The translations under genes and the position numbers were made by a program. Below, piece by piece: positions 2,020 to 44,184 of a DNA stretch of 64,000 bases. This stretch comes from a virus (lineage: Duplodnaviria; Caudoviricetes): positions 1 through 64,000 of the IMG/VR virus record IMGVR_UViG_3300005985_000001. The stretch is one strand, 5' to 3'. How positions within the stretch are numbered: position 1 is the first letter of the stretch; every line of letters begins with the position of its first letter. The notes under the pieces were generated by a model. That model was not told where the DNA came from. It saw only the letters and a program-made list of their open reading frames with translations, and made no database searches.

Positions 2020-2054
2020 GATGGGTTTTCTCCTTCATTGACCGGTGGTGACGG

Positions 2055-2504
2055 TCATTCTGCGGAACGTTCCGTTGATTCGCGTTCTAAGCGTCGTGAA
2101 AAACTAATGGCTCTCGTCGGGATGTAATCCGTGCCGGGTTCAAAGCCCTGCTCCTGAAGCTTCTGGTTGGCTTCTTTGGAGCGACGGCGATAGTCCTTAC
2201 CGTAGGCGCGGCGCTGTTGCACCTCAACCCAGGTCCAATATTTCTTCCAGATCTTCTTGGCTCTGCGCTCCAGATCCGGTGGACGCGGGACTTCCTGACG
2301 ATACATATACTTATAGGGTGCGCTGTTATAGCCATATACAGCACGGACCAGCGCCATCAGTTGATTGTCCTGCTGCACGAGAAGGTTATAGCGTTCACGG
2401 TTGGCAGCAGCGCGTTTGGTTAGCTCGGCACGAAACCAGCTCTCAAAATTTGGATCGGCGAAGTTGCGTTCGGATACTGCGGGCACATCGTAGTAGGTAT
2501 TCAT
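2055..2504 (-). CDS. Hypothetical protein
   Basis: 149 aa ORF, start overlaps upstream stop. Confidence 0.7.
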   Translation of the reverse strand: MNTYYDVPAVSERNFADPNFESWFRAELTKRAAANRERYNLLVQQDNQLMALVRAVYGYNSAPYKYMYRQEVPRPPDLERRAKKIWKKYWTWVEVQQRRAYGKDYRRRSKEANQKLQEQGFEPGTDYIPTRAISFSRRLERESTERSAE

Positions 2505-2873
2505 TTACGTATCTCAGCATAAACTAAGAGTAAGAGTAGTCCAACCAGAAACAGGATCAGTCCCACCAGGAACACGAAGAATGCTTCTTTCGTGGTAATC
2601 ACGAGAATATTGCTGGCGAGCACATGGTTCATCATGTCTTGGGGGTCCATCGGAACGTTCCGGCTATCGAATCGAGAGCTTGGTGATAATGAAGGCGATG
2701 AAGGTGACAATCGCAGCGAGGATGAACGCTTCGATGAACTTCCCGATCAAAGGTGGACGCTTGGGAATAGGCTTAGGCGTCTTCTTGGGCATCAACCAAT
2801 TCTTTCGGTGAAATACATTTGATTTCGGTGAGCCTGCCATCACGGAAGGTTGCTCGATACTCGTACCAGACAT
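2501..2873 (-). CDS. Two small predicted membrane proteins (2501-2710, 2664-2873)
   Basis: Hydrophobic stretches FFVFLVGLILFLVGLLLLLVY and FIEAFILAAIVTFIAFII; true starts uncertain. Confidence 0.45.
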
Positions 2874-3120
2874 TCGTTTTGTTCCGGTAGTCTCCAGTCA
2901 GCGTATAGAAAAGTACATCGCCATCGATATTGATGATGGTGTCTAAGTCTTTTTCATTGACTACCTGTGAAGATCGGCGGCGAACCAGTAAACCATCAGC
3001 ACGGATGATGTAGAGATCAAGAAGGCTGTCCAAGTCCTTCGTCTGGAAGCGTTCGCCTTGAAATAACTCAGCGAACTTCGGTAGCGGATATTCACAGAGG
3101 ATCTCGTCGTACATGCCCAT
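2773..3120 (-). CDS. Conserved-looking phage hypothetical protein
   Basis: MGMYDEILCEYPLP...FQTKDL...Y.I..DG.L pattern resembles a recurrent phage family. Confidence 0.6.
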   Translation of the reverse strand: MGMYDEILCEYPLPKFAELFQGERFQTKDLDSLLDLYIIRADGLLVRRRSSQVVNEKDLDTIINIDGDVLFYTLTGDYRNKTNVWYEYRATFRDGRLTEIKCISPKELVDAQEDA

Positions 3121-3199
3121 TATTCTTCATCCTCACTGCCAAAAAGCTTCTTCAGGCTGATACGGTAGTCACTATCCCGAAAACGTACATCATCGAATT

Positions 3200-3671
3200 T
3201 CATTTCATCTCCCTGAGCATCTGCTCAATCTGTTCTAAGGCACTACAGAGTTCCTGTTTTGCCAGGAGTAAGGCCTGCTTCCTAGCATCTTTATGCTTGA
3301 AGCGTCCTTCAGAACGGATCATACCGAAGGACACAATCCGAATCTTGCTGGCCTCCTTGAACTTGTCCACAATCAGGGTCATCAGGTCGCCGACTTGGAG
3401 TTCGTCGTAGTGAGGACGTTCATGCCATTGCATTGTCATCGTTGTAAACAAACTCATAAGGCGCACCGTCCATGAAGAAATGATCGACTGAACTCATACC
3501 GATAAACTCTTCCTCAAAGTTCTCCTTTACATATGCCATTGCAGCATTCCAGTCATCGACAAAATCTCCACTCTCGAAACGGGTGATTTCACCACCGAGA
3601 GGATTGACCATCACGCCGCGATAGGTCTCTGGTTCGAATTCGTCGTAGTCAATACCGACAAACGCTTTCAT
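3200..3671 (-). CDS. Two hypothetical proteins (3200-3466, 3420-3671)
   Basis: Tandem ORFs on the arm's coding strand. Confidence 0.55.
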
Positions 3672-4177
3672 ACCCGATCCTCTCCTGAATAATCTTGGAA
3701 GTGTTTCACATCAGCCTCGGTTAAAGCGTACCATTCACGTTCGACCTTGCGTTCCGCAAAAACAGCTTTGAAATGCTTTTCGAGTGCGTGCCGATCTGTC
3801 GTATAAATTACATGGGTGAAATCGAGTACTTCTGCGTGGGCTGTTTTGTATGATCTCAGTCTCTGCTTGAGATCATGTGTCTTACCCAACTTCCAAAGTC
3901 TGTTAGGCGCTTTTAGAAGATAGACGTAACCCTTAGCACTTTTGGGTTTTGCGGGCTGCCACAGGTTAATCGAAATTCTCAGGGAACAGATTACAAAAGC
4001 AGTCGAAGTCGTGACTGCGATAGCGAGTAAAAACATGGACCATTCATCAGTGTGTCCGAGAGCTTGGATATACCATTGGTAGATGCCCAAAAAACCAAGT
4101 GATAAAATCGCTAAAGGTGTCTTCGCTAACTCACGAATGTTATCGTAGATGTGAGTATTCTTCTTCTTTATGCCCAT
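3668..4177 (-). CDS. Membrane-anchored GIY-YIG (T5orf172/MUG113-like) nuclease-domain protein
   Basis: Two N-terminal hydrophobic helices, then GYVYLL...WKLGKT...RL..Y...LEK.F...F.ERKVEREWY. Confidence 0.75.
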   Translation of the reverse strand: MGIKKKNTHIYDNIRELAKTPLAILSLGFLGIYQWYIQALGHTDEWSMFLLAIAVTTSTAFVICSLRISINLWQPAKPKSAKGYVYLLKAPNRLWKLGKTHDLKQRLRSYKTAHAEVLDFTHVIYTTDRHALEKHFKAVFAERKVEREWYALTEADVKHFQDYSGEDRV

Positions 4178-5018
4178 TCGTTCTTTTTAACTCCTCAATG
4201 ACGTTATAAACAGTTGACTTTCCAACGCCGAGATGTGCTGCAATTTCCAATGGTTTCCCGTCAACAAGCAGTTCTGGATGCTCTTGGAAGAAGGCAATCG
4301 TCATCTCTCTTGCCATTGGTTGCTTCTTATGTCCAAGCGTGGAATTTGATGGAATGATTTCCATGCCCTGTATTCCATTGGAACTTCCATTGGAAGCTGC
4401 TGGAACTTGTTTGGAATCCTGAATAGACTTTCTGTATTTCCGAAATGCGGTTAAAACTGTCGCATCCCACTGCTTTGAGTCCTCGCGGTATTTTTCCTGT
4501 GCTTCTGTATTGGCTTTGGTCTGACTAAGGTGCATATGAACAAACATCTCACCCGCAAGTAGTGCGATCAATGGCGCACCAAAACCTAAGATAACGCCTA
4601 CGGCTGTAATCCAGACATCGCCTTGCGCCGAAAGCGCCCGGAGCACAGAGTTGATATTACTGATCAGCGCAACAGCAAAGACGACAATCAGCATAATCGT
4701 GACGACAGTACGATTGCCTCGAAGACGTGCATAGGTTGCGATAAAGATCGCCAAGTCAATGGCAACAAAAGCTGCCAGTGCCACCAGTTGACGCACCCAT
4801 TCTGCAACATGCTCCTGCTCGATTCCTGCATATGCTGTTGGAACGGTATGAACACCAGAAAGAAGTGCGGCACAGACAAACATAAAGATCACCACACTGC
4901 GCAGCCACCAGGGATATTCACTTGAAATATCCTCTGGCTTTATTGGTACACTGGCAGGATGCTGTTGATTGAACTCTTCTCGGAACTCGTCATAGTTCAT
5001 AGCGGAACGTTCCGTCAT
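4140..5018 (-). CDS. Multi-pass membrane protein with coiled coil and C-terminal HTH (DUF2637/SpdA-like architecture)
   Basis: About four hydrophobic segments, then PLEIAAHLGVGKSTVYNVI HTH. Confidence 0.7.
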   Translation of the reverse strand: MTERSAMNYDEFREEFNQQHPASVPIKPEDISSEYPWWLRSVVIFMFVCAALLSGVHTVPTAYAGIEQEHVAEWVRQLVALAAFVAIDLAIFIATYARLRGNRTVVTIMLIVVFAVALISNINSVLRALSAQGDVWITAVGVILGFGAPLIALLAGEMFVHMHLSQTKANTEAQEKYREDSKQWDATVLTAFRKYRKSIQDSKQVPAASNGSSNGIQGMEIIPSNSTLGHKKQPMAREMTIAFFQEHPELLVDGKPLEIAAHLGVGKSTVYNVIEELKRTNGHKEEEYSHLR

Positions 5019-6139
5019 TCGTACTTTTCTTTCAACTTCAGATAGAGATTGTGCTCCTGCTGTTCACGGCGTTGGTGTTCTCTTTGTTCACGTTCTTCGA
5101 TAGCTTGTTTTTCCGTAGTCCACTTTTCAATGCATTCTTTGCGCCAGTCAGACCAAAGCCAACGCGTCGGGAATGAAATTCGCTGATAGTCTTCTTCATC
5201 GAAGCTAATCCACTCTGGATTGATTTCATAGAAGTAAGGGCTTCGATACTTTGAGATAAAGTCTTTACCCCAAAATTCTTTGTAGAACTTCTCGTACTCA
5301 GAGAAAAGCTTATCGCTTAACTCCACGATCTCTTCTCGAGCGTCAATAAGCGCCATGATGTATTGCTCGTTCATTCGTCATCTCCTCGCTCAATCCATTT
5401 CATCAAATTGCTCATCCAGGCGACCCAGAACTACGACATCGAATTCCGTCGCGTCCTCGAACGTGATGCCATCCTGCCATCGCCAATACAGAACACAATG
5501 TTCTTCGCCCCAGCCATCGGAGAGTTGACCCATAAACTCATCGCGGTCTGCTTTGCTTTTGAAGTGAAGTGTGATACTGATCACGATTCGTTGAGTCCTA
5601 GCAACTCTTTGACCAGATGCAGAATGACGTACACGCGTGTCCACTCAGTCGTTGGCTTGAACCCGTTTTCGTTCACTTCGCCGCGACTGTCGAATTCCGC
5701 AGCCGAATCCAGCACATGTACTTCCAGATCATACTCTGCGAAAATGTCCCAGAGATCGCGTAGCTGCTTCATGGCCTCATCACGTTCTTCGCGGGCCATA
5801 CGCAGCGCCAGCAGAAGTTCCGCAGGCTCTAGAGACTCCACATTGAGATTACGATCAAAATCACCGCGCACCAGTTCTTCCAGGAGATGCGCTAAGGCGC
5901 TGGTCTGTGCAAATTCCTGTACCGTCAATTTACTCATCGTAAAACGCTCCTATAAGCTCTTCCTGCTCCTGTGGGGTTTCACTGCGATGCTGAAGTTCCC
6001 AGATGATTTCCTTGATGCAGTTCTCAATCTTTGCGGCGTCCTTCGGCTTGTATTCTTCATAGAGAAACTCGTAGGTGTCTCCGAGTAGAAGTGCAGCGGC
6101 AATCCCACAGGCAATGCGTTTCGCATCTCGTTTGATCAT
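5015..6139 (-). CDS. Four hypothetical proteins (5015-5374, ~5390-5584, 5581-5937, 5930-6139)
   Basis: Abutting or overlapping start/stop junctions. Confidence 0.6.
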
Positions 6140-6378
6140 ACCGTTCGCAGCTTTCTCCCAACAATCCGCAGGCTGTTGGGGTAATTGACGTTGAAGTAAA
6201 CAATTTCCCGATGTTTCATGATATTGAGCGTATGCTGCACTGTTGCGGCATTACAGCCAAAGTGTTCCGCGATCTCTTTCCGAGTCGGTGCTTGTCGGTG
6301 TTCGTTCCAGTAGTCCAGAATAAAATCGCGCATCGCTGGAATTCGCGCTTCAATACGCTGTTGAGCTTTATTCAACAT
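6136..6378 (-). CDS. LexA-type DNA-binding-domain-only protein
   Basis: RDFILDYWNEHRQAPTRKEIAEHFGC...TVQHTL..M...I matches the LexA N-terminal wHTH; no peptidase domain. Confidence 0.75.
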   Translation of the reverse strand: MLNKAQQRIEARIPAMRDFILDYWNEHRQAPTRKEIAEHFGCNAATVQHTLNIMKHREIVYFNVNYPNSLRIVGRKLRTV

Positions 6379-6577
6379 CCACGACCTTCAGGTGTCCACG
6401 CCCGTTCCGTTCCAGAAAGCCGATACGGATCAACTTCCGAATGTGGAAGTGGATGGTACTCGGACTTTTATTAAACTCATTCGCAATGGTGCGAATCGTC
6501 GGTGCATAGCCGTATTGCTGATCAAAATCGACAATGAACTGGAGAATGCGTTTGCGCATCTCGGTGAGTCTGGGCAT
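6368..6577 (-). CDS. LexA-type DNA-binding-domain-only protein
   Basis: RILQFIVDFDQQYGYAPTIRTIANEF.KSPSTIHFHIRKLIRIGFLER; no peptidase domain. Confidence 0.8.
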   Translation of the reverse strand: MPRLTEMRKRILQFIVDFDQQYGYAPTIRTIANEFNKSPSTIHFHIRKLIRIGFLERNGRGHLKVVDVE

Positions 6578-6625
6578 TGAAATTCTCCTTCATAACCCGC
6601 GTGGTGGGCGGGTTTCGGCAGTGGT

Positions 6626-6844
6626 TTAGAGCTTTAGTCTTCCTAATTCGGTAATTCTATACCTCGTATTCCGGGTCGTACCCCAGACCCTTTCGATGTC
6701 ACCAGAATTCAAAAGCGCCTGGCGCATTTCGTTGATCTCCTGATCGGTATATTCAGGATAGTTCGTCTTGAAGCTGGAGATCAGGCGCACTTCCTGGAAG
6801 TGCTGCAACAGCCTCTGTCTCAACTGCTGTTTCCGTTCCGACAT
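6626..6844 (-). CDS. Small winged-helix-like protein
   Basis: L..L..SGDIER......TRYRITELG wing pattern. Confidence 0.5.
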   Translation of the reverse strand: MSERKQQLRQRLLQHFQEVRLISSFKTNYPEYTDQEINEMRQALLNSGDIERVWGTTRNTRYRITELGRLKL

Positions 6845-7925
6845 GGGATTCCTTTCGCTGTCGTGCGATATGCTCAGTCAGTAATGTTTCAAGCTTGGTG
6901 AAGAGACCTACATCCTCGAAGAGAAGCTGCTCCAGGGCATTACGTCCATGTGCGAGTTTTTCTTCGCCAAAGTAATAGTGAGCACCCCGTTGCTCGATCA
7001 GGTTTACGGCGATTGCTGTGTCTGCCAGGTCTGCTACATAGTTGATGTAGCTCTCCGGATAGATCATCAACCCGAACTCGAAACGACTAGGTGCAGGCTT
7101 GCCGGTCTTGTTCTTGTGGATCATGCCTTTGTGTCGCTTGCCGATGATGAAGCCTTTTTTCAGTTTCTCGCCATCGGGCATGATCGTGTCTTTGTCCAGC
7201 GAGACCTTCAGCGGCGGTTCCATGTAGATGCGCAGGGACGCCAGATAGGGGATGCTGTTCCCGCCACTGGAGACAACCATCCCGCCTTCGGGCTTGAGGG
7301 CATCGTAGAACGGCTGCTGTGTGGTCACATAGACCTGATTGACGATCACCACCGCAGCGTTGCCTTTGGCGGCACGGGCGAAGAACAGGGTCTTGAAGGT
7401 GCTGCCGACCCGCGCCAGCTTCATCATGGTCGCGTCTTCCATTGTGCCTTCGGCGGCAGAACGCACCGGCGAGCCGCCGAAGCTGTCCAGGACGATCAGA
7501 CTGTACTTGTTTTCGGCGTAGAGTGTGAGCAGGGTTTCCAGGGCGCTTTCCAGATAGGACGGATGCCACACATGCAGGTGACAGTCTGCCATCTCCTTAT
7601 CTTCTTCGCCCATGTAGACTTCTTCTTCAGGGATTCCTAAGCGTTCCAGCCATTTCAGATCCAGCGCCGACTCGGTTTCCAGCAGCGCCACATACTCACC
7701 GCGTTCAATCGCTTTCGCAGCGGCGATCAGGACCAGCGTGGTTTTGCTGGTGGCTTCACGCCCAGAGATCTCTGTGACACGCCCACGCGGGAAACCGCCG
7801 CCGATGGCAAGATCGGCCGCGTAGATGCCCGTAGGGATAAACTCGATCTCAGGCGTCTCGCCGGGCATGGCTTTACGAGCGGAGAGCTTCTTCAACGTTT
7901 CAGGACTTAAAAAGGTCATCAGCAC
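6753..7925 (-). CDS. recA: RecA-family recombinase
   Basis: IPTG..AADLAIGGGFPRGRVTEISG; Walker A variant GREATSKT; LIVLDSFG; VVIVNQ; SSGGNSIPY.ASLR; KNKT. Confidence 0.93.
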   Translation of the reverse strand: MLMTFLSPETLKKLSARKAMPGETPEIEFIPTGIYAADLAIGGGFPRGRVTEISGREATSKTTLVLIAAAKAIERGEYVALLETESALDLKWLERLGIPEEEVYMGEEDKEMADCHLHVWHPSYLESALETLLTLYAENKYSLIVLDSFGGSPVRSAAEGTMEDATMMKLARVGSTFKTLFFARAAKGNAAVVIVNQVYVTTQQPFYDALKPEGGMVVSSGGNSIPYLASLRIYMEPPLKVSLDKDTIMPDGEKLKKGFIIGKRHKGMIHKNKTGKPAPSRFEFGLMIYPESYINYVADLADTAIAVNLIEQRGAHYYFGEEKLAHGRNALEQLLFEDVGLFTKLETLLTEHIARQRKESHVGTETAVETEAVAALPGSAPDLQLQDELS

Positions 7926-7928
7926 TCC

Positions 7929-8114
7929 TCATTGTAAGTAACCGCTGTAGGCGGGATATTGAATCTGATCGACCCAGCGATAGACCAATTCCAGTTCTTC
8001 ATCGTTGAACTGGAGTGCATCGATGGCTTCGCCGAGGGTCATGAAGGGGTAATCCGCGAGATAAGAAGTCACGATCATCCCAAAGAACCGCACTTCCGTC
8101 ATATATTCTTTCAT
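7929..8114 (-). CDS. Hypothetical protein
   Basis: 61 aa ORF in tandem. Confidence 0.55.
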   Translation of the reverse strand: MKEYMTEVRFFGMIVTSYLADYPFMTLGEAIDALQFNDEELELVYRWVDQIQYPAYSGYLQ

Positions 8115-8458
8115 TCATTGATCCAGACTGGCGTGTGCATCACCGCTTGCAAGCGGGCTAAAGCGGTTTCGACAGCATTGCGCCCCCAAAGATTGATATT
8201 AAACTGCCAGAGAGCTTTGTCCACATCCACCTCACCAGCGTGCTCGTGGCATTCAGCACAGAGCAATGAGCAAAGTTCCTTCTGGAAACTGAGTTCTCGT
8301 GCCTCTGGATTGTTGACGGTTTTACTACGGGCAATCAATTCATGCATCTGATAACCCAAACGACGATGACAGTAATCACAGGGCGGCATTTCTTTCAACC
8401 ATCCACTGCGACGGATGATCATCTTGCGCTTTTGTTCATCACGCTGGCTCATGGGCAT
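8111..8458 (-). CDS. HNH-like (His-Me finger) zinc-binding nuclease
   Basis: CDYC...MHE.I.RS.....LLCAECHEH. Confidence 0.6.
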   Translation of the reverse strand: MPMSQRDEQKRKMIIRRSGWLKEMPPCDYCHRRLGYQMHELIARSKTVNNPEARELSFQKELCSLLCAECHEHAGEVDVDKALWQFNINLWGRNAVETALARLQAVMHTPVWINE

Positions 8459-10150
8459 AGGCGATTCCTATTAAACGCAGACCAAAAGTATCTGTGTTCC
8501 ATTCTTCTTTCAGTGTCGGGATACAGGGTGTTGAATCGACCTGTACCAGATAGTTCTCGATGTCTGACCACTCCAGCCCTGAGAAGTATTCCCAGAGTTC
8601 ATCGGCGCTGGCATTTCGGTAGATGTCTTCGTACTCTTCGTCGTAGGTACATTCAGTCACACCGTCCATGAGAAAGTAGCCCATACTCCCGACGCTGGCG
8701 AGATAGCCTTCGATGATGACGACAACGCGGATTTGCCAGATCCCCGAAATCGCCTGAAATTGCAGCACTTTATTCATCTTCGGAACGTTCCGCTAGATGC
8801 ACCCAAATGCGACTGGTCTTGATGGCTTGTGGGAAAATTGTTTCCAATTGCTTTCGGTTAATTATCGGCACATGTACCAGGAATTCATCCAGATCCTCGT
8901 AGCTGATTTCATTGCGGAGATAGTCGATCAGGAAGGCTTCATCCTGCATCGCAGCATTGACATACTGCTCGATCATGTCCGGGCTTGCGGTTTCGCCCAA
9001 TGTTCGGACGGTATAGGCTTCCGCCACCAGTTCGGTGGGAATGCGATAGAGTTCATCTTCGATGTAGAATTCCATATAGTTCATCTGAGGATCGCCATCC
9101 CGAAGTGCCTCAATCGACAGATAGCCATCCAGGATGCGATCTTTTGAAAGGAGTTGATTGAAGCACAGTTGCAGCGCCTGTCCGATAGTTTGCGCGTCTT
9201 CCTCAGTTGGCATCAGGATACTGCCGATCATCAGGTTCACGGTCATCGCCAGAGCTTCTGTGCTATGTTTCAGAAGCTGTTCTGCGGCTTCCTCGCCCTG
9301 CGCCGTGAGTTCAAATTGTCCCGGCGAGACTTCCAGCATATCGCCGTCATCGATGGCTTGCTGCATCCGTTCTTCGAAATCTTCGGGCAAATCATCATAA
9401 TCAGAATTGATAGACAAGAGCTTTGGTCTCCTCAATGAATTGAACGAATTTAGGATTGGGTTCCCAGTTGGGATTGACGCCCAGTTCCAGGATGGCGGCG
9501 GCTTCGCCTCGTGTCAGGTCCTTCGCAGAAGTCATCCTGCGAGAGAACCAGAGCTTAAGCACCAGCAGCCGCTCATCCCGTGAAGTCGTGTGCGCGTCCA
9601 GGAATCGTGCAACGGCGATGGACTGTTTCATTGTCGCCGGAACGTTCCGAGACTCATGGGATCGCGCTAAAGAAAGTAGCTGGTCGAGCACCGGTCGTTC
9701 TCCTTCATCGCCCTGTGGTGGAGGGCTGCACAGATGTACTTATTCTACTACGAATTCGTACATTTTGCAACGGTTCGATGTTCAGAGTTGCTTAGGTAGC
9801 TTAGTTTCCACCTTCTATGAACTCAGAGACGATAGAAGGTGTTGATGTCTTCAAACATTGGAATCCTCTCGTTTGACGAGTTGATACTTCGAAAGTAATG
9901 CGTTCCCGAATTCTGCCATCAGTGCCTTGAAGCGGATGTCGATGTCCTGACCACCAAAAGGATGTAGATAACTTGCATAAAGACAATCACTAGCGATGCC
10001 ATGAAATTTCAACCAGTCCAAACCAAACTTCTCTGTGCCTTCACTCATTACACGGTAGAAAATCTCACCGGCGTTGTAACGCGATTCCCGATCCCAGGTA
10101 TCCCAGGCTGATTCGACTGGCGTATCTTCAGAGTCGCGATAGATAGACAT
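8439..10150 (-). CDS. Four hypothetical proteins (8439-8777, 8770-9435, 9401-9691, 9851-10150)
   Basis: Tandem ORFs; 9401-9691 has hairpin, SD and promoter motif upstream. Confidence 0.6.
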
Positions 10151-11652: not shown

Positions 11653-11696
11653 GTGTATTCTCCTTCGGTGAGTTCCGGTGGTGACGGAACGTTCCG

Positions 11697-16272: not shown

Positions 16273-16885
16273 CAGCTTTATTCTCCTTCAAACCTGGTGG
16301 TGTCAGGTAAGCGTCGTAGAACGGGTGAGACACAGGCACAGTCCAGTGTCCTTCCCAGTGCAATTCCAAATCTGCCCAAAGCGTACAGGCGTCATAATGA
16401 TTCGCCTGCATCTCCAAGAGCATTCCTTTCTGAACTTTGTACGGCAGACTTCCCTGGGGAAGCAAATCACGCACAGTAACTGCTCGTTCGTAAGGAACCA
16501 AAAAAGCGGCACGCGGCAGCTTGCCCTTACCGCTGGTTTTGCGAAGCATGGTTGTCCAGCGCGTGAGCGGCGTTTCGAAAATCACCGCCAGCCAGTAGCG
16601 GCAGCCGGTATCGCGTTGAAATTCTTCCGCCCACTGCTGCTGACCTTCACGCCAGCCATTCTCGGAGATAAACGAAAACACGCCCTCATGCGCAGTTTTC
16701 ACTTCAATCGCCAGGGATGGCGATCCCAATACAAAGATGTCAGCACTGTTAGGTTCCGACAATGCAAAAAACCCCGCCGCTGCTGAACGGAACCGCCACT
16801 GCGGATGGTTGACCAGGGGGGTGATCTCCCCCTGGTAAATGTCCTTCCCATTCGACCGTGCTTTGCGCTTGGTCGTCTTCGTCAT
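16253..16885 (-). CDS. PD-(D/E)xK nuclease, possible Holliday-junction resolvase (RecU-like)
   Basis: NSADIF...LAIEVKT; likely start ATG 16885. Confidence 0.6.
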   Translation of the reverse strand: MTKTTKRKARSNGKDIYQGEITPLVNHPQWRFRSAAAGFFALSEPNSADIFVLGSPSLAIEVKTAHEGVFSFISENGWREGQQQWAEEFQRDTGCRYWLAVIFETPLTRWTTMLRKTSGKGKLPRAAFLVPYERAVTVRDLLPQGSLPYKVQKGMLLEMQANHYDACTLWADLELHWEGHWTVPVSHPFYDAYLTPPGLKENKADVCCLR

Positions 16886-17996: not shown

Positions 17997-18040
17997 CAGG
18001 TGTATCCTCCTTCTTGTGCCGGGGTGGTGTCCCGGTCAGT

Positions 18041-19340: not shown

Positions 19341-19416
19341 TGAGTAGTCTCCTTCATGGAAGTCCAGTGGTGGTGGACTAAAAACCTGTACTGATTATAC
19401 TACGAAATGGTGAAAA

Positions 19417-20513: not shown

Positions 20514-20573
20514 TTGATATTCTCCTTCATGAACCATTGTGGTGAATGGATTATTACTGGATGTTACAGAGGA

Positions 20574-21903
20574 CTAAAGCACTCTCACAGTATCTACTGG
20601 TTGCCATGTCGTCAGGAAAAGCACCTGCTCATCGGCTTCACCCTCTGCGAGTTCGTCACAATCACTGGACATCAGGTGATAAGGGCGTACATCGAACTTG
20701 ATGAAAAACTCTGCTACGCCCTCATCCACATGAAAATCCAGAATTTCTCCTCGTGCTCCCTGTGGCACAAGGGTGTACTTGTCCTTGAGAATCGCAGTTC
20801 TTCCGATTAGTTCTTCATAGTTAAGCATAGTTTTTCCCTTTCATGGTTTGATGATTAATATTACCTTTTTAATCCACTGGATGTTACGAAAGCTTAGTTC
20901 CAGTCCAGTGGCCAGTCCCTGATTTTCTCACTGGGTTCGAACTCACACTCAATCCCGAATCGAGCATACCATTCACGCACCTTTGCTTTGAGATGATCCA
21001 ATGTCGATGCCTCGAAGTTATTCTCATTGTCAAATGTAAAGTAAAGCTCGTCTGTGCCGGTATGCGGCATGAATGTGTGCTGAACTACGAATATGAGCTT
21101 TGCTATTTTTGCCATGTATCCTCCAGTCAAGGTTTTATCACTAATATAACATCGTGTTGTTCTAAACACGTTAGTGCCTCAATCTGATCGCGCCAGGTCG
21201 AGCACCAGCGCAGAATGCCCAGCAGATTGCCCGGATACGGGTCTGCCAGCGGGATTAAGACAATTTGCAGCACCCACCAAAGCGCCAGAATTAGGATGAT
21301 CAACCCAATGGTCAATCGAAGACTTGGAGCCGCCATCATTCGCCCTGAAGGTATTTCCAGTATTCAGACCATTTGGCTTCGTCATCGAGCAACTCGATCC
21401 AGTGATGGACCTCGCTGGATTCCGTGTGGAAATTGGCATCGCTCAGAGCTTCCGCGAAGACTTCCATGATGCGTAATCCATCCCACTCTGCCCATGAGGA
21501 AATGGCGATACCGAGTACCAGATTTTCGTTCTGTCGCAGACGATCTGGGGTTTGGTATTTCTCCACAATCGTGGTGGGTAGATGCTGATTAATCAGAGCT
21601 TGAATCAAAGCAGCTTTGTCAGACATTGAGAAATTCTCCTTCAGGTTAGTTTGTGGTGGTTTGAGATTGCGAATTAATGTGAGGTGGCGTTTCCCGTTCA
21701 AATTCGGACACCCAGCCTAGAGATGCTTTGACCGCATCTTCGCCCTGCTCATAGAACATCTTGAGGCAGTCCAGGGCACATAGAGCAACGGTTGGGTCTT
21801 CAGCAAATTCATCACAGTGCCACATCACAATCTCACGACCTTCCTTGTCGTAAATGTAGATACCGCCTTCTTCACTGCCGTAGATTCGAACCTGTTCGTG
21901 CAT
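20574..21903 (-). CDS. Five hypothetical proteins (20574-20828, 20894-21169, 21127-21339 membrane, 21336-~21628, 21646-21903)
   Basis: Tandem ORFs. Confidence 0.55.
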
Positions 21904-25515: not shown

Positions 25516-25565
25516 CGAGCATTCTCCTTCACTTGTTTCGCTGGTGGTGTCAGCGAGAAAACGAA

Positions 25566-32242: not shown

Positions 32243-32278
32243 TCAGATTCTCCTTCTCCGTTGTGGTGACGGATACAG

Positions 32279-32832: not shown

Positions 32833-33343
32833 TTTCTGGGAAATTCAATAAAGCAAATTCGCCAAAAAGCTCTTTCGCGGCCTTATCATATGCTTTTGCA
32901 GCTTCTATCTCGTCTTGAAAACTTCCAAGTGAGATTGTCTTGTAATTCACCATGATTCGAGAATGCCAACGCTTGTCCTTTTTACTCCAATAAACTCCTT
33001 TAAAGCTCGAACTGTACCGTCCATTTCGTTTTCTTTGATTGCGTGTATTTTCTGCATTAGTACAGAGTCTTAAGTTCTCCTTTCTGTTATCTAAGGTACG
33101 CCCGTTTATATGGTCAACTTGTAAACCTTTGGGAGCATTAAGGATCTGTCGATGCATATATACCTTTTGAGAATGCCTTCTATCGATATAAACATTTCGC
33201 CGGGCATACCCATCTGAACAGAGCCAATTAAACTGGGATAGTTCTTCATAATTCTCTGCGTCCACTAATGCAATTTGTCCATTTGAAAGGACAATTACGT
33301 TGCAAGTCATCATGTTCGTTTTACTCCACCACAAGCATCTCAC
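32813..33343 (-). mobile_element. HNH-AP2 free-standing homing endonuclease
   Basis: VDHINGRTLDNRKENLR..T.AEN; FKGVYW...W.SRI...LGSF..E.EAAKAYD.AA..LFGEFA.LNF; AT-rich relative to flanks. Confidence 0.9.
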
Positions 33344-33935
33344 GGAGCCGGACTTTACTCGTTACTGCGCGACGACTGTTGTGGCACCATTGAATATTCT
33401 TGGTGAGTGGATCGCGGCGGTAATGCATTTCGTAGATCTGCTGTCCATTTTCTTCGACCACATGGGTTTGATTCCCGCACTCCGGGCATTCCGTCTCATA
33501 GTAGTTAACTTTACGGTAAGGCATCAGGGTTTCTCCTTCTCTGGGCGTGGTGTGCCCTACGAACGAACAGCTATAGCATCCAGCACAGTCTCCAGCATCT
33601 CGGCAAACGCTTCGGCATAGGCTTCCGCTTCTTCTGCCCAGAGATACAAGTAAGGCAGAACCAGACCTGCAACATCACCTTCAAACCAGATCAGTTCACG
33701 ACCTACCGTGACATGCACACGCGGACAGTATCCATGCAGGTTCATACTTCGAAGGGTTTGAGTCGCCTGGTTTAAGCCAGCAAGAATAGCTTGTATATCA
33801 GCAATCGATTCCTCGCAGATCACAAAATGCGAATTGTCGAACCGTGAGTAAGGTATGGGTTCAGAGCCGACCAATCGCTCGATATGTAGTTTGACGCCGA
33901 TCCAAGGAACTACTTCAACACGAGTGTTGAGCATG
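33321..33935 (-). CDS. Zn-ribbon small protein (33321-33524) and hypothetical protein (33557-~33935)
   Basis: CPECG motif; both have hairpin and SD upstream. Confidence 0.6.
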
Positions 33936-33977
33936 AGGTTTCTCCTTCGTTTATGCTCGGTGGTGACGAGTTTTGAA

Positions 33978-34613: not shown

Positions 34614-34680
34614 TTGAAGCTTCTCCTTCTAACCTTGTGGTGTAGGTGTTTATACTGATTATACTACGAAAACGTACAAA

Positions 34681-36965: not shown

Positions 36966-37021
36966 TGTGGTTACTCTCCTTCTTGGTTAGCGAATGGTGT
37001 TGGTAGTGCTGCGAACGAAAA

Positions 37022-39667
37022 CTACTGATTGAGCCACTTCAAAAACTCCTCATCAGACCCAAGCCTGATACGAACAATACGTGCTGCAACTAAAAGTTCA
37101 TGGCGTCCTTTCTCATAGCCGCTTTTGTAGATGCCGTAGATACGGTCGTTTTCTGACTGGTCATCGACTGTTAGTGTGCGACCCAATCCAAGCTGGTGAG
37201 CATCAACCATCACTGCTCCAGAAAGACCATCATCATAGCCAATCATGTAAAACAAGTATTCCTGTGATAGCTCTGGCATAATTACTCCTTATCTCTGCTG
37301 AAGCACGGCACTGAGGGTATAGCTCAACGCAGCCGCGACGGAATCACCCACCAGCCGGTGATTCAGGTAGCGGTTCTGGAAATTATCCTGCTGGGGCACA
37401 TACTGACGGGCCTGCTCGTCGGTCAAGGCTTTCACATCAGCGATTTCATCCCAGGTTTGGGTGACGTAGTTGAAATATTTCATGGGTTTGTCTTTCAGCT
37501 AATATCGCCTGTTGGGTTGATCTCATCATCTTCTGTGAGATCAATAACTATTACTTGTGCATCTGGCTTCATCCGCTGTAGTTCCTCAATCGGATCAATT
37601 ACTTCGTGATCCTCAAAGTGAATCGGACGCACTTCATGCCATTCGCCATACTGCATAGCCAATGCTTGCAGGCGAGTTTCCCATTTTGACCAGTCCTTAA
37701 CACCGCGAAGATCTTCTAGGCTGATTTCGTCCAAGAACGGATGTGCCTCAAGAAGATATGGCTTACATTCCTGACTTACACGCGGCAGGGCATGGGTATA
37801 GAGGTCGTCACTTGTCATGAAGTTCAGGATGTCATAGACGCAATCAATCGGATATTCAGTCCCAGGAACAGGGCAAAGAAATCCAGTGGTAATACTGAGT
37901 AATGCATTTAAATGGAACTGGCGCATTGGGCCTCTCCTTCTCTCCTGTGTGGTGCAGGATGTCTATTACTTGTTCGAGAACTGCAAGACTCTGGAATACA
38001 AATTGCTATCGTTTCTCGGATTTTACGGAACGTTCCGTCATGAACCTCCTAAAAGTGCCTGCACCATGAGAATGACTAAGCCAATGAGCATAACGCCAAG
38101 CATGGACCAACGAATAGTGGCGGCGAAGAACCCTTCATACTCAATGTCTTCGAGATACTTGTCGACGATACGATTAATCAGGCGCTGCATCAGGTTTTTC
38201 TCCTTCATTGAATAGGCATGTGGTGGATGTCAGGTTAGGCTTCTTCGGTCAGTGTCACCTCGATAAATTCAAATGTATCGTCCGGGAATAAAGAGGTCTG
38301 AAGCCAGTGCTTGTGCGCTTCAACTTTCTCGCGGGAAATCCAGTGCAGGTCATAACGATCAGGATCAGGTGAAAAGTTCACATAGCCTTCATGTTCACCG
38401 TAGGTTGGATAGATCCAGAAGGCATACATGTCTGCATCTTCTCGAATCTCATACCGATGGAGTCGTTTACGCTGCACTGCATCAGGATACAACCGGCGTG
38501 ATTTTAGCTCGATGAACAGTGCCTCAGACCAGTCATAATATTGCTCTGTGAACCCTTCTTCATCGAGATATTCCCACTTTGAAATAAGCGTGGCATTATC
38601 CATCGCTTCAACAGTTGCTTCGATGCTTTTCTTCTGTGCTCACCAATCTTCGAAGTTCATAGGTTTATTCTCCTTATCTACTCGGAACGTTCCGGGCGTA
38701 GTTTGGTAAACACCAGTACCTGTTTATGTTCCAGGTAGCTGCTTTTCCACTCTTGGTCAGTCAAAATAGTTTCGACCAAGAGCCATTGGGCATGAGGGCA
38801 GAATCCGGCTTGATACAGCCCATTAGGACCATAGAACTCTGCGACTTGAGGCATGGGATAGTAGAAAATCTGATTGACCTGATCGTTGATTTCCATTGTT
38901 TCTTTTACCTTTCCCAGCGCCAGTAAATGACGTTTTTGCCTTGATGGTCTTCGTAGAAACCCATCTTGAACATAATCTTGCGCAGCCAGCGACGACGATT
39001 GGTTGAGATCACAAACATCTTAGGCATCGTACAATCGCGGTAGACAATCACGCGATTTTCGCCGAATGTCCCTTCGTAAATCATGATCACATCATGCATT
39101 CTACTACTCCTTGTTTATCCAGATCAAGACGAACGGGGGATTAGTTCTCTGTGTTAAAGAACCTGCTCAAGCGTTGAACCAAGTCATACAAATGCTCATC
39201 CCGATACCGATACGGAATCTTCAAACTCTTGCCAAGTTCGTTTTCCGTGAAATGGCTGTTGCTGTGATGCCCCCAGCATCTCCCATCGGAATAGTAGTAT
39301 CCGATCTCTACGCCATCCAGATAGATCGGATACCGTTTGTCCATGCCCACTGCTTTTGTGGGCGTGCCATGTGTGATTTCCATAGATTTATCCTCCAAAT
39401 TAGAGAACGGATGATTAGTCTCTCTTCCTTCTCCCTCCCCGCCTACCGGTCCATCAACGCGGTTTCAATCTGGGCATAGGCACGAGAAGCAGCCTGATAC
39501 AGCGGATGATCTTCCGGGTAAAGCGTCTGCACGTTACGCAGCACTTCAATGAAGGCATGGGTGGCGGAAATCACCACCTGGAGGGCATCCAGACGGGTAC
39601 TGAGATCCATCTGTTCATCGTAGAGCAGGGCATACAGATTGAGGATATTCTCGGTGATGGTGAACAT
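37022..39667 (-). CDS. Run of small hypothetical proteins (37022-37279, 37289-37483, 37495-37926, 38235-38603, 38678-38896, 38905-39099, 39141-~39381, 39443-39667)
   Basis: Tandem ORFs, several with hairpin and SD. Confidence 0.55.
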
Positions 39668-39698
39668 GGGGGTATTTCTCCTTCTGCCTGAGTGGTGG

Positions 39699-39920
39699 TC
39701 AGGGTGTTTGAAATGCGAGTTCTATGAGTTTCTTGATCGAGCGATGATGCTTTTTGCCGTTCTGTGTGAGTACCACCGTATCATCAACCGAGAGATACAC
39801 AGCTTTCTGGATCCTGCGAACTCTCCCTTTATTCGATATTTCATAGTCCGGGAACTCCGAGATTGACTTCCAGAGCTCTTCAACAATGGGTTGTTTCTTG
39901 GGTCTTGGCCCTAAAAGCAT
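39699..39920 (-). CDS. NUMOD4-only small protein
   Basis: ELWKSISEFPDYEISNKGRVR...VVL..NGK......KL+..AF; no HNH domain. Confidence 0.7.
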   Translation of the reverse strand: MLLGPRPKKQPIVEELWKSISEFPDYEISNKGRVRRIQKAVYLSVDDTVVLTQNGKKHHRSIKKLIELAFQTP

Positions 39921-40035
39921 GTTACCTCCGTTACATTTCTTCCCTCATCCTATGGTCTAACCCCCCCCCTAAATACACATTTCTTCCCGTGAGGTGTTAC
40001 CGAGGTTACAGGACTGCGGAACGTTCCGCGCATGG

Positions 40036-43000
40036 TTAGGCATTGAGTTTTGAGTTGATCCAGACTTCTGCGCCAATGACATAGAAAGGCGCATGGGTAT
40101 CCAGTACCCATCCATTAACCTGAAGCATGTCGTGGATCTGGGCAAGGCGCTTCTCAGATGCTTCGTAGTAGCGAGGTTTTTCGTTAGTCCGCTGAAAAGA
40201 GACGGTGAGGAATCCCCATGACCAAAAGATAATGCGTTCGAGCATCGTGTATTCTCCTTCAAGGTCTGTGTGGTGCAGACGATGTACCTATTATACTACG
40301 AATTGCTGTGGAGAACCATGCAGGTTTCGCAGACCGGGACGGTTCCTCGTCCTGGCACGGTCATAGTCCTTCAGCGGTCAAAGTCCTGTTGCGTACAAGG
40401 GGTACAGGGGTCGGAAGCATGGTGGCTAATCCCCGAATTCAAGGATGAACTTCTGCCCGAATTTGGCATTGCCCACCACCTTGATCTGCTCCAGGATCAT
40501 CGGGATGTATTGGTGAAACACGGGAAACTTGAAGCCAGTCTTCAATAGATAGGTCATCTCCGTTGCTTTACCGCCGAACAAAAATGAAGCCACATGCCAG
40601 ATCGACTCTTCGCCACCACAACTGGGATCATTGACCGGTGTATAGAAGCGTTCCCAGTTGTTTGGGATGACCACGGGTGCAGGCTTGGACACGGGCTTGG
40701 GAGGTGGAGCCACCACATTGGTGGCTCCCTTCGGTGAGTACACTGGCAGCAATGCGGCGAGATCCGCAGGCACTGCCGAGAACAGACCCTCGTTACTCTG
40801 CATCATCCACCTTCCCGAAGGTCACGAGACCGGATAACTTGGCTAACTCACTGCGATAGGCTTTGTCCATCTTGGTGATCACCAGATCAAGGAACTTCTG
40901 CACGCCTTCTGCATCCTTCGCACGAGTGAAGATCTCGAAGGCAGGCAGGGTACGCCCCAGCAGCAGCCAGGCTTCCAACTGGTACTTGTTGACGATGCTG
41001 TTGACATTGATGTGGGTCAGTCGATGATACTGAACAATCTGATTCTCGTTCAGTCCGGTGAAATCGCGCTTGGAGACCAATTGCTTCTGGTCGTCAGATG
41101 CTTCACCACGCGCAACCGCTTTTAATGCGGCATTGAACTTGTCTGTATATTCATTCCAGTCATTAGTGCGCTTCTCAATCGCCACGTTCACCGGATGCGC
41201 GTTGCCGGTGGTGAGACCGATCAACTGCCCGAAGTCATTGAACTGCTTGCTGGCATAGTGCGCGGTGTAGTACACCTGCTTGTCGATCTCGTTGCGACGA
41301 CCGACCACTGCCCGATCCTGATCGCCTTCCAGGTCCAGCAGGTTGAGGATACGCACATCTGCACTCAGTTCCGCAGCAAAGGCACGATGAATGCCTTCGC
41401 TATGATAAGCCAGCGCACGGGCAATCTGATCCATCTGGATGTTGTTCTGGTACACCACTGGTACCCCCGCTTTGCGGCTGCCCTGGGTGGTGCGGGTCAG
41501 CCCGATCATGCCCAGCGTCAGCAGTTCTTCGAAATGAGCACGCACGCTCATGGCGTCAATCTGTTCTTGGGTGTAGCTCAGCCGAGCCGGAAGCGCGGAA
41601 CGTTCCGCCCAGGTACGGATCGACGGGTTGACAGGCGCAACTTCGGTCACGGGGGTTTCGGTGATAACTGCTTCCATATTCACATTCTCCTCATTGATAA
41701 CCGGCGCAGGGGTGTTACCGTTCATGCCAAACAGGGTGTTCTTGCCAGTACGACGATTAGCCATTAGATTTCTCCTTCTTAGAGTGTGGTAAACGCGAGT
41801 AGATCAAGAGGCTGTGAAACAACCATGCGAATACGCCGAAGCGTCCGACCGAACCGTACTTCTTCTGCCAACTCCTTCCAGCACAAGTTGGATATAAAGT
41901 CCTCTTCCCAGGCCCCACAGGGAAGATTCGCCTGATTGACAGCACGGACTTCTGCCATACGCTTCATAAACTGGATCTGTGCTTCAGTGAACATGATGTA
42001 TGTAGCGACCTTTCTATAGGGGATGCTCTATGGACATGTATATAGGGCGATGCTTATCCATCGCCCATTGTTGGGTATATGCTTACCTACTGACGGTTGC
42101 GGAAGTTCTTGAACACTTCACTGTCCTGAATACGCTCCAGGTGACGCTGAGCAGCCATCTCATGCCCATAGACCTTTGTCACCTTCCGGTTGAGGATGTT
42201 CTCAGTGCGACCCGTGCGAGGGTGATACTCATAGGTTGCCAGGAACACAGCATACCCACCATCAAACGACTGCACTTCGAACTTGCTCGTGCGTTGAATC
42301 CTGTTTGCGTTCATTGTTGATACTCTCCTTCATATAGCCTGCATGGTGCAGGCAGAACCCACTTAGCTAGACTTCTTTGCTGCAAGACGAACAATCGGGG
42401 TGATTTCAAGCGTGTCCGCATCGATGACAAACAACCGTTTCTCAGTAGCAGCATCTGCGACATAGTGCTTGGTGATGCCATTCACGGAGACCGAGCTAAT
42501 CACGAACTTCTGCTGAGCAGCCTTCAGCAGCACCATATCCTCAGTGGTGAGCAGGGGCTGTGTGGCTGCCTGACCGACAAACTCTTCGTCCGAATGACGC
42601 TTGCCCACGATGACGTTGATGACCACGAATACGATGAGGATGGTTGCCATGCCTGCGATAAACCATTCCATGTGTATGCTCCTTAGTCCTGATACATCCA
42701 GCCAAATTGCATTTCATGCTCGACTGCCTTGAGGCGCACCAGATCGCCCTGACGCAGCACCAGAATTTCCATCTGCGTGCAGGCGTCATCCATCGAGCAG
42801 CCTGTACGAACCATCAAGGCAATCGCCTCATCGACCCGAACATCCTGCGTATCAATGAATGGCTTGACCGACTTTGCCGCTTTGTTGCCCCGTACCATGC
42901 TCAACAGACCCATTTCAACTGCTCCTTGTGTAGGACCCACCGAATAAAGAGGACATGCAGGCTCCAGATCAAAAACACGCCTCAGAGGACGTGTTTCACT

Positions 43001-43689
43001 GATGGAGTTATGAGGTTGTGTACTGGTTTATTGTTGCTCGACGGTACGCCGTACTCTCGCGGTCAACATATTCCTGCGGAGAGAGTCTGGATGCGGACAA
43101 ACTACTATCGCGCACCAAAGATGATGCACTTTATTCTCCTTTCCTAATGGATCTCTGAAATAGAGACGCCAAAACCACAGTGGGGGAATTGCACCCCCAC
43201 TATGTCCTACTAGGACTGTGGTTAGTAATGATGGATTTCACCATCTTCGACCAGGATAATTAATTGGACCTTATCCCAGTCGTCGCCAAAATCATCAGTC
43301 ACAGTTTCTGTGACACTGACTTCAGTAGAGTGGTCATACATTTCCCCTTTGCAGTCAAAGAGCATTGTATGCCAGGTCGATATAATCACACTGCTTACGT
43401 CATAAACAGAGCGTGTGCATCGCTCTGCCCTGCCGTTCGTGTGAAATCTCCAACGAGCTACACCGAGGTCAACAAATGCGCGATGACCCGCCTCGTTGCC
43501 ACCCAATTCCATGACAAACTTTTCGCTGTCATGAAACATATTCTTGAATTCGGACACTGAAAGCCCTGCCCGAACAAGATCTTGGCGCATGAATACTGAA
43601 GCCGATTGACGCAGTTCTCGCGTCACGTTTGTTGCTGAGTTAGTCACGATGTGACCACCCTTTCCCGCCTCGCGGCGAAATTCGAGCAC
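40036..43689 (-). CDS. Run of hypothetical proteins (40036-40245, 40426-40806, 40793-41764 [323 aa], 41779-41994, 42087-42314, 42363-42671, 42683-~42913, 43222-~43647)
   Basis: Tandem ORFs with strong AAGGAG SD sites. Confidence 0.6.
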
Positions 43690-44098
43690 AATCCGGTGTT
43701 CGTCGGTTGCTGCACACGCAGCGAAGATAGAGGAGGCCCCCTAGCTCACTTTTGCCTCGAACCTCTTTCTTCACTAGGTGCTTCTCCCTCGGAAGGGTCA
43801 AAAACAAAAGGGGTTGCAGAATGACCACATCTTCGCTAGGATCAGCAGTGGAGCAGACAACCGTCCGCAACGTACTCTGCTCCGATGAGTGACTCAGGAG
43901 ACAGGGGTTTTTAACCATGTGGCGTGGCATCCCCTGTCTCCGCTTGTTGTAACCTTCGATGAATCGATCAAAAACCTACGAACAAACTACGTATTACCGC
44001 TTCCACTTAATCTTAAGGGTTTGTGAATCCAGTGAGGACTATGATGTAGACATTGCAAGAGACTTAGGAAGGGATTTGCGAGGTGCATTACAGATCGC

Positions 44099-44128
44099 TT
44101 GATTTTCCATAAAGACTTGTTATATAAT
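44099..44128 (+). promoter_or_regulatory. Sigma70-like promoter for the virion operon
   Basis: TTGATT-N18-TATAAT upstream of the CACCAC hairpin, SD and ATG 44185. Confidence 0.5.
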
Positions 44129-44184
44129 TGAGCCAAATGTTCTAAACAGGGACACCACCCCTGTCGAAGGAGAATACATCCAAT

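Follow-up and report, generated by a model that had tools for sequence, protein, structure and literature searches.

CACCAC-loop hairpins before the translation starts of an uncultured phage: a repeated signal that may act as an mRNA element

The DNA studied here is the first 64 kb (64,000 nt, the window) of one 83,741-bp contig of an uncultured phage (Caudoviricetes; IMG/VR record IMGVR_UViG_3300005985_000001) from a rhizosphere metagenome, and the subject is a family of small hairpins that carry a CACCAC box in the loop and stand just 5' of ribosome-binding sites. The contig ends share a 123-bp terminal overlap, and the genome is therefore either circular with a length of ≈83.6 kb or terminally redundant. 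Leftward genes occupy 1-43.9 kb and make up the non-structural arm. They encode a large serine integrase spanning the junction, a RecA/UvsX-like protein, a DnaB-like helicase, a primase, a Sak4-like ATPase, a sliding clamp, a single-stranded DNA-binding protein (SSB) and an AAA_5 ATPase, together with HNH and NUMOD4 genes. The genes from 44,185 onwards run rightward and include those for the large terminase, the portal, the major capsid protein, a tRNA-Trp and a tape-measure-like protein of 2731 amino acids (aa). No DNA polymerase gene and no second non-virion polymerase was seen among the annotated parts.

An earlier note, made from the letters of this DNA alone, had listed 18 hairpins between 2040 and 44164. 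All of them are present, 17 on the minus strand and one (44146-44164) on the plus strand, and their stems are as described: 4-7 bp long, with Watson-Crick pairs only, and all different in sequence yet paired. The loop is NCACCAC in twelve copies, CACCACA in three, ACACCACA in one, a 6-nt CACCAC in one and CACCATG in one. This last copy (42337-42353) is atypical, as its better fold is a 7-bp stem closed by a CCA triloop. Each listed hairpin is followed 0-7 nt 3' by GAAGGAG and, 5-9 nt further, by an ATG, GTG or TTG. The loop sense also follows transcription as stated, with all 19 copies linked to a ribosome site co-oriented with their genes.

The number of hairpins was compared with 200 dinucleotide-preserving shuffles of the whole genome. 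Hairpins with a stem of at least 4 bp and a CACCAC-containing loop of 6-8 nt occur 23 times in the genome, vs. a mean of 2.7 and a maximum of 9 in the shuffles. When AAGGAG is required within 24 nt, 19 are found, vs. a mean of 0.01 and a maximum of 1. The ribosome site of these 19 copies is a strong GAAGGAGA located 0-8 nt 3' of the hairpin. CACCAC is also the top-enriched hexamer before sites consisting of AAGGAG and a start codon, being present at 19 of 42 such sites (40-fold). One further CACCAC-loop hairpin at 62333-62353 (minus strand; 18.9 bits with the covariance model described below) lies antisense within the giant tape-measure-like open reading frame (ORF) and has no ribosome site; it is within what chance would give (≈2.7 per genome).

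The pairing was analyzed in 12 aligned copies. Here 79.8% of the cells are paired vs. 43% in shuffles, and none of 500 shuffles came up to the pairing or the covariation score of the real alignment. Every copy forms the four inner pairs (100%), each of which is represented by three or four Watson-Crick pair types, and pairing falls to 21-44% in slid registers. A covariance model (R1), which the earlier note had proposed as a check, was built and recovered the 12 training copies and two more (E < 0.05). R1 was trained on the NCACCAC class only, and because the CACCACA class scores poorly (just 9-11 bits) its hit list undercounts the family. Searching Rfam with cmscan gave only two tRNA matches over the window at E ≤ 0.1 and only chance-level matches over genome positions 64001-83741 at E ≤ 1, and a literature search for the motif found nothing, in line with the remark in the note that the motif was not recognized from any described family. 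We conclude that the hairpin family is a real, previously undescribed gene-expression signal.

The family has five members beyond those listed first: a variant hairpin at 47480-47496 (plus strand), an imperfect one at 38213-38233 (minus), stem-less boxes at 21653-21658 and 36994-36999 (minus), and a copy at genome position 83290 (plus). All copies in the window are listed in Table 1 together with their neighboring genes.

Table 1. Hairpins, stem-less boxes and associated features of the window. Loops are given in square brackets; scores are from covariance model R1.
Position	Strand	Feature	Context	Score (bits)
2039-2057	-	Hairpin TGACCG[TCACCAC]CGGTCA, then AT-GAAGGAGA	61-aa gene just upstream of serine integrase	26.0
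6594-6614	-	7-bp stem, CCACCAC loop	69-aa LexA-type winged-helix gene	26.1
9710-9726	-	Hairpin GCCCT[CCACCAC]AGGGC	20 nt 3' of promoter-like GTAGTAGAAT; 96-aa gene, GTG start	
11672-11690	-	Hairpin; 5' arm is half of 12-bp palindrome CGGAACGTTCCG	Before DnaB-like helicase (TTG start)	
16292-16308	-	Hairpin ACCTG[ACACCAC]CAGGT	Upstream TGA stop within 5' arm	
18019-18035	-	Hairpin CCGGG[ACACCAC]CCCGG	Before AAA_24/Sak4-like ATPase	
19361-19379	-	Hairpin AGTCCA[CCACCAC]TGGACT	20 nt 3' of promoter-like GTAGTATAAT; 300-aa nuclease-like gene	
20534-20549	-	Hairpin CCATT[CACCAC]AATGG, 6-nt loop	Before 50-aa gene	
21653-21658	-	Stem-less CCACCACA box	15 nt 5' of GAAGGAGAAT; 96-aa gene start	
25538-25556	-	Hairpin TCGCTG[ACACCAC]CAGCGA	Before 169-aa gene	
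32257-32273	-	Hairpin TCCGT[CACCACA]ACGGA adjoining GAAGGAGAAT	Before AAA_5 ATPase	
33543-33557	-	Hairpin GGGC[ACACCAC]GCCC	Before gene 33321-33524	
33956-33970	-	Hairpin CTCG[TCACCAC]CGAG	Before 125-aa gene	
34632-34647	-	Hairpin ACCT, loop ACACCACA, AGGT	15 nt 3' of promoter-like GTAGTATAAT; DUF7666 gene	
36994-36999	-	Stem-less ACACCAT box	Before GAAGGAGAG and SSB gene	
37943-37959	-	Hairpin TCCTG[CACCACA]CAGGA	Before DUF7736 gene	
38213-38233	-	Imperfect: 3 bp, A.C mismatch, 1 bp; CCACCAC loop	Before 50-aa gene	12.9
39687-39703	-	Hairpin CCTGA[CCACCAC]TCAGG	Upstream TGA stop within 5' arm	
40264-40280	-	Hairpin GTCTG[CACCACA]CAGAC	14 nt 3' of promoter-like GTAGTATAAT	
40290-40299	-	Promoter-like GTAGTATAAT, core of TTCGTAGTAKAATNAGTAYA	Further copies 34658-34667, 19394-19403, 9742-9751, each just 5' of a hairpin	
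42337-42353	-	Atypical GCCTG[CACCATG]CAGGC	Better fold: 7-bp stem, CCA triloop	
44146-44164	+	Hairpin ACAGGG[ACACCAC]CCCTGT	First rightward gene (135 aa), which precedes large terminase	
47480-47496	+	Variant: ribosome site (AAGG) in 5' arm, ATG in 3' arm	70-aa gene	
56180-64000	+	Giant tape-measure-like ORF, 2731 aa	Ends at genome 64375; predicted N-terminal two-barrel RNA-polymerase-like domain	

The order within the unit is hairpin, 0-7 nt, (AT)GAAGGAGAAUA, 5-9 nt and start codon, with a conserved part that extends beyond the plain Shine-Dalgarno sequence, and the unit is placed between the stop codon of the upstream gene and the ribosome site. At 19 of the 20 sites with both a box and a start codon, 20-29 nt separate the 3' end of the former from the latter. 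In gaps of 90-180 nt the hairpin is still just 1-8 nt from AAGGAG, and its adjacency to the ribosome site is therefore not a by-product of genome compaction. The upstream stop codon lies inside the 5' arm, or a few bases 5' of it, in most copies. This explains why no two stems are alike, as the 5' arm is taken from the end of the preceding gene and the 3' arm complements it.

A survey of the gene junctions showed that nearly every left-arm gap of at least 30 nt with an AAGGAG site carries the box, while overlapping (coupled) genes have none, which means that the unit heads blocks of coupled genes. It stands before the first cistron of most translationally coupled blocks in the 44-kb non-structural arm and before a few genes elsewhere. 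A terminator scan gave one convincing terminator in the left arm. Together with the stop codons at the 5' arms this indicates that most copies are internal to polycistronic RNA. The spacing of the copies along the genome is irregular (0.4 to 6.7 kb), which rules out a signal placed at even intervals.

Four copies had been predicted to lie at transcript 5' ends, and four conserved promoter-like TTCGTAGTAKAATNAGTAYA motifs are indeed found 14-21 nt 5' of the box. This 20-nt motif (minus strand) is conserved far past a plain -10 hexamer, and related forms (TATAAT-N-AGTATA) occur in the related phages L001, L002/L006 and L008. TTCGTAGTAKAATNAGTAYA may serve as a strong early promoter of the host type or as one specific to the phage. 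The same four copies plus the one at 44153 lie directly 3' of conserved TATAAT-type promoter motifs.

Two common kinds of hairpin signal could be rejected at this point. The copies are not intrinsic terminators, as their 3' flanks (ATGAAGG, CAGAAGG etc.) have no U tract and none was called in the gene-strand terminator scan; the only overlap with the scan is one opposite-strand match at 37943-37959. Lambda-type nut sites (boxA plus boxB) have one hairpin per operon, a GNRA-like pentaloop and a boxA partner, whereas the ≈20 copies seen here have C/A-rich loops of 6-8 nt and no common flank besides the ribosome site.

The copy at 83290 belongs to an ORF-less unit outside the window (genome 83275-83366, L009:19275-19366), which adjoins the integrase end and the presumed attP. 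It starts with a possible CATAAT promoter, followed by an extended hairpin GCGCCG..AACTT[CACCACA]AAGTT..CGGCGC, ATGAAGGAGAAUAC and a strong intrinsic terminator. After these comes a second CCACCAC with a ribosome box, heading merely an 8-codon ORF. The unit could give rise to a small RNA that acts as a decoy, or it could be a relic.

The closest relatives of the phage are uncultured contigs of 81-87 kb. They were found via the large terminase in metagenome assemblies only; megablast against a phage collection and a viral-contig search gave no relatives. A distant terminase relative (L007, 36% identity) is located on a contig of an Anaerolineae metagenome-assembled genome, and the AAA ATPase has matches in Chloroflexota. 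Based on these sequence matches the host is probably a member of the Chloroflexota, an assignment we consider tentative.

In L001, whose terminase is 65% identical, hairpins with the CACCAC box also precede AAGGAG, and L001:13174-13194 is the ortholog of the hairpin at 47480-47496, with a sense-strand U.G wobble. In the L002/L006 phage (terminase 60-65%) and in L008 (48%), the motif enriched before ribosome sites is CGCCAC (10-fold), which differs by one base. The CGCCAC hairpins have new stems (CCGC/GCGG, CTGAT/ATCAG, CCGA/TCGG, TGTGA/TCACA), and the boxes are more often stem-less, the stem-less form being predominant in the L002/L006 phage. In L006, the ortholog of hairpin 33543-33557 is CCGC[ACGCCAC]GCGG, with two double compensatory changes and an A-to-G change in the loop. 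The L006 ortholog of the AAA_5 ATPase gene (copy 32257-32273) has a stem-less TGCCAC box at unchanged spacing. The flank of the ribosome box is phage-specific as well (G-AAGGAGA here, CT-AAGGAGA in L002/L006, GC-AAGGAG in L008). No box was seen in the parts examined of L003 and L004 (53-54% terminase identity) and L007, which are too short for absence to be called.

In six cases in the relatives the box starts 5-7 nt after TATAAT (TATAAT-N5-7-ACRCCAC), i.e., at the predicted +1. In two of them the gene that follows encodes a LAGLIDADG homing endonuclease and is inserted in the late region against the direction of its neighbors. Such genes are found at L001:16700-17245 and L002:17118-17885 (both minus strand), reversed between the scaffold and capsid genes and each with its own TATAAT, phage-specific box and ribosome site; the window has no insertion there. 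The position of boxes at or after TATAAT promoters indicates that the box is transcribed from host-type promoters.

We favor the interpretation that the unit acts in the mRNA at the starts of translation, where a factor specific to the phage lineage would read it, although we would put its chance at somewhat below even. A signal at the RNA level had also been preferred in the earlier note over a DNA hairpin promoter of the N4 style, and this part is retained; for the RNA-binding protein or endoribonuclease that it invoked, no candidate can be named. The tight distance from box to start codon, which is kept even in long gaps, argues for RNA, as do the location of the box at the predicted +1 of host-type promoters in the relatives and the copies before late-region and selfish genes. 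Stem-less boxes, here and in the relatives, would suit a site that has to be single-stranded RNA. The stems are weak and the loops large (for typical copies, -1.3 to -5.9 kcal/mol when folded as single-stranded DNA). When the leaders were folded in silico, the accessibility of the ribosome site was 0.37 vs. 0.38 with a shuffled 3' arm, and the box was unpaired at 0.90. As the stem leaves the box unpaired yet does not free the ribosome site, the job of the hairpin seems to be to display the box.

On the same folding we rejected a passive insulator whose task would be to keep the ribosome site free. Pairing of the loop with the ribosome site, or colinear with the 3' tail of 16S rRNA, was dismissed by inspection as the sequences are not complementary. 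A T4-style late promoter within a hairpin that masks the ribosome site does not fit either, as the ribosome site is outside the hairpin in all but one copy.

In the mechanism that we propose, the mRNA leader would have two parts, a C(A/G)CCAC box held single-stranded in a hairpin loop and the extended ribosome box (AT)GAAGGAGAAUA. The hairpin would dock at the contact between the platform of the 30S subunit and the mRNA, directly 5' of the Shine-Dalgarno helix. The loop would be read by a lineage-specific trans factor, most likely a phage-encoded RNA-binding protein, which would thereby repress or activate translation initiation for all box cistrons together and might set their stability as well. 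The reader is probably encoded by the phage because the box changes by one base between relatives (CACCAC here and in L001, CGCCAC in L002/L006 and L008). A further-reaching variant of this idea would be a regulon of translation that spans the whole phage and includes a decoy RNA, for which the unit at 83275-83366 is the candidate. The copy at 47480-47496, with ribosome site and ATG both inside it, resembles the operator of a classical repressor.

Several observations weigh against this interpretation. There are essentially zero G.U pairs among ≈100 stem pairs, which is unusual for RNA and fits pairing at the DNA level, and on the template strand the A.C mismatch of the imperfect copy at 38225 would appear as a G.T wobble. 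Searches of ≈45 proteins with Pfam and PHROGs gave no RNA-binding protein, reader nuclease, sigma factor or second polymerase, and a conserved 323-aa early protein had no match in Atlas. The phage has an RNA-polymerase-like domain of its own for which a promoter was not identified. Finally, the box is kept in L006 for three of six box-bearing orthologous genes, so that its positional conservation is partial.

RNA could also be involved in another way, with the hairpins as punctuation for processing and stability. A loop-specific endoribonuclease of phage or host would then cut the polycistronic early/middle RNA at the hairpins and leave a protective 3' hairpin upstream or a 5' hairpin downstream, giving each gene block a separate half-life. 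Primary transcripts starting near the box would already have the same 5' end, and in four or five copies the hairpin does lie at +3 to +8 of the predicted transcripts. The intercistronic position, with a stop codon on one side and the ribosome site on the other, agrees with such a role, and with few terminators in the left arm the transcripts must be long. Stem-loops at the 5' end are known to stabilize mRNA (as in the 5' untranslated region of ompA), and nucleases of the Cas6/Csy4 type read hairpins by an invariant loop with free stems. However, processing needs no fixed distance to the start codon, yet the observed distance is tight, and the stem-less boxes and the copy at 47480-47496 suit translational control better. 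Nuclease candidates are also limited to HNH, LAGLIDADG and PD-(D/E)xK-like genes, and we consider processing rather unlikely as the main role of the hairpins.

The polymerase-like domain resides in the giant tape-measure-like ORF. This ORF carries the motifs SGWRYPSTH and LRGDNDGDRF. It has 13 giant homologs, and R-x-P and D-x-D-x-D are invariant or nearly so; across 14 homologs of 1805-4304 aa D-x-D-x-D is invariant. A structural model of residues ≈500-1140 had a pLDDT of 74. Almost all of its best 50 Foldseek matches are largest-subunit chains of RNA polymerases (bacterial beta', AR9, phiKZ), plus QDE-1, with probabilities up to 0.99 and weak E values (0.003-0.03). Sequence and profile searches of the domain against PDB sequences gave nothing, and only the fold search matched. 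The giant tail protein thus carries an RNA-polymerase-like domain of the two-barrel type, fused to a tape measure.

If this domain is active as a polymerase, the hairpin box might be its promoter or initiation signal. GTGGTG would be read on the template strand, the inverted repeat would help to expose single-stranded DNA as in N4, and transcripts would start in the 3' arm and have short leaders with the ribosome site. Besides the R-x-P and D-x-D-x-D motifs and the fold matches, this agrees with the Watson-Crick pairing of all stems and with L008, a CGCCAC-box phage that encodes a homologous giant protein. The copy at 47486 would yield a leaderless mRNA, as in phage P23-45, whose gp96 is a precedent for such a polymerase (PMC10770324). 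Promoters of P23-45 are linear and clustered, however, whereas the copies here are spread across the 42-kb arm, before the first rightward gene, in the late region and before homing-endonuclease genes. They include stem-less ones, and stems of 4-5 bp with 7-nt loops reach just the low stabilities given above as single-stranded DNA. The distance from loop to ribosome site varies by at least 9 nt, and ≈12 further sense-strand CACCAC are found within left-arm genes, showing no avoidance. Copies also lie directly 3' of TATAAT promoters, and in the relatives the box is at the predicted +1. Because the box differs from the P23-45 motif in being spread out, before late genes and 3' of TATAAT, we keep the promoter only as a lesser rival and an unlikely one. 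If true, hairpin promoters like those of N4 would have been invented independently a second time, in a family of polymerases unrelated to the first and with use across the genome.

A structural or DNA-level feature without any sequence-specific reader (an insulator hairpin, a signal for single-stranded DNA priming or recombination, or a mobile hairpin-plus-ribosome-site cassette at gene-exchange points) would agree with an orientation that follows the possible direction of replication away from the divergent region at ≈44 kb, and with the own extended ribosome box of each relative, as copy-and-paste cassettes would show, but it is very improbable, since an insulator needs no invariant 6-nt loop, the stem does not raise the predicted accessibility of the ribosome site, the genome spacing is irregular, the box keeps its distance to the start codon in long gaps too, and stems that all differ show that the copies are not recent duplicates of a cassette.

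The phage genome has a second repeated sequence, the palindrome GGAACGTTCC, which occurs mostly as the full CGGAACGTTCCG and has ≈31 exact copies in 83.7 kb, in genes as well as gaps (e.g., 2064-2073, 11686-11695, 38684-38693 and 59983-59992). In the relatives there are 11 copies in 21 kb of L001, 7 in L002 and 3 in L003, and none in L004, L007 and L008. The palindrome overlaps the 5' arm of hairpin 11672-11690 and is the loop end of the terminator at genome 83336-83359.

The tRNA-Trp (CCA) is located at 47708-47782 (plus strand). A second tRNA-like match at 47898-48018 (plus strand; Rfam, 34 bits over 121 nt) was not called by ARAGORN and may be an interrupted or degenerate tRNA. When the hairpins are compared with a tRNA anticodon arm, which operators of the thrS type mimic, the geometry of a 5-bp stem and a 7-nt loop fits. 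CACCACA is the same as CUCCAAA of the phage tRNA-Trp at 5 of 7 positions, and the majority loop NCACCAC puts CCA one position out of register.

Several known systems have features in common with the hairpin family. The MS2/PP7 coat protein-replicase operator and the E. coli thrS operator are also small hairpins at or 5' of the ribosome-binding site, with loop bases read by a protein and a stem that is free as long as it is paired, and the copy at 47480-47496 has the ATG in its 3' arm as in MS2. The T4 RegA regulon is similar in that many early mRNAs are controlled at once. However, the hairpin operators are single sites in their genomes and RegA sites are not hairpins, and no homolog of the MS2/PP7 coat, thrS-type or RegA proteins was found here. 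The promoter-early stem-loop (PeSL) cassettes of T4-type phages are repeated promoter/stem-loop units before early genes, but their stems are conserved copies tied to gene shuffling, while the stems here are all different. C/A-rich single-stranded elements just 5' of the ribosome site raise translation in enterobacteria; these are loose ACA-type motifs and not an invariant hexamer.

The three promoters of phage N4 are located together at one end of its genome. Their loops have 3 nt and are recognized on the template strand by a single-subunit polymerase of the T7-like kind, and extrusion of the hairpins needs 3-nt GNA-type loops, supercoiling and SSB. The similarities to the present family are hairpins of 5-7 bp, a partly free stem sequence, recognition of loop bases (proposed here) and a virion-borne polymerase (polymerase-like by prediction here). 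In contrast, the phage studied here has ≈20 copies between 2 and 47 kb and one at 83 kb, with loops of 6-8 nt; three of the stems have just 4 bp, some copies are stem-less, and the polymerase-like domain is of the two-barrel type. The family does not match a promoter of the N4 type in the size of these loops, the weak computed folds of single-stranded DNA, the dispersed copies and the two-barrel type of the only polymerase-like domain.

In P23-45 the virion polymerase gp96 is a tape-measure fusion, and it uses a short motif of its own that is present at 14 start sites and adjoins the start codon (PMC10770324). The motif is a linear, AT-rich sequence, TTATTCCTTTA, that runs up to +1 directly before the ATG, so that the mRNAs are leaderless, and its copies are clustered in the pre-early region (PMC10770324). 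Both phages have a giant tape-measure protein with an N-terminal two-barrel polymerase (polymerase-like by prediction here) and a short phage-specific motif before many genes, which tracks the presence of the fusion in relatives. The box described here is instead C-rich, usually in a hairpin loop and 20-29 nt 5' of the start, with a strong ribosome site in between. The box does not match a linear promoter of the P23-45 type, as the motif sequences are unrelated and the box is spread over the whole non-structural arm. The clade is little known, probably infects Chloroflexota and has a predicted RNA-polymerase-like domain fused to its tape measure, and whether the box is an mRNA operator or a polymerase promoter, either answer would teach something new about it.

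Of the systems described so far, the SAS/ESAS repeats of Cluster K mycobacteriophages come closest. These have 11-19 copies per genome in one orientation, confined to the non-structural half, and consist of a conserved box with the ribosome-binding site directly before starts; about half have an inverted repeat just upstream. Their consensus varies among subclusters, and a role in translation initiation is suspected. By analogy, (AT)GAAGGAGAAUA stands before ≈20 starts here, nearly all leftward, with a sequence unlike GGGATAGGAGCCC. The sequences are unrelated, and the hosts are Actinobacteria there and probably Chloroflexota here. Repeated signals of the SAS/ESAS kind at phage translation starts have been known for fifteen years without a mechanism. 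The CACCAC family is unusually clean, with an invariant loop, free stems, a fixed distance to the start codon and a one-base variant in relatives, and this gives a direct handle for finding its reader. ESAS has conserved 17-bp arms around a variable spacer, whereas the hairpins described here have free arms of 4-7 bp around an invariant loop, which is the signature of a folded strand and not of a duplex binding site.

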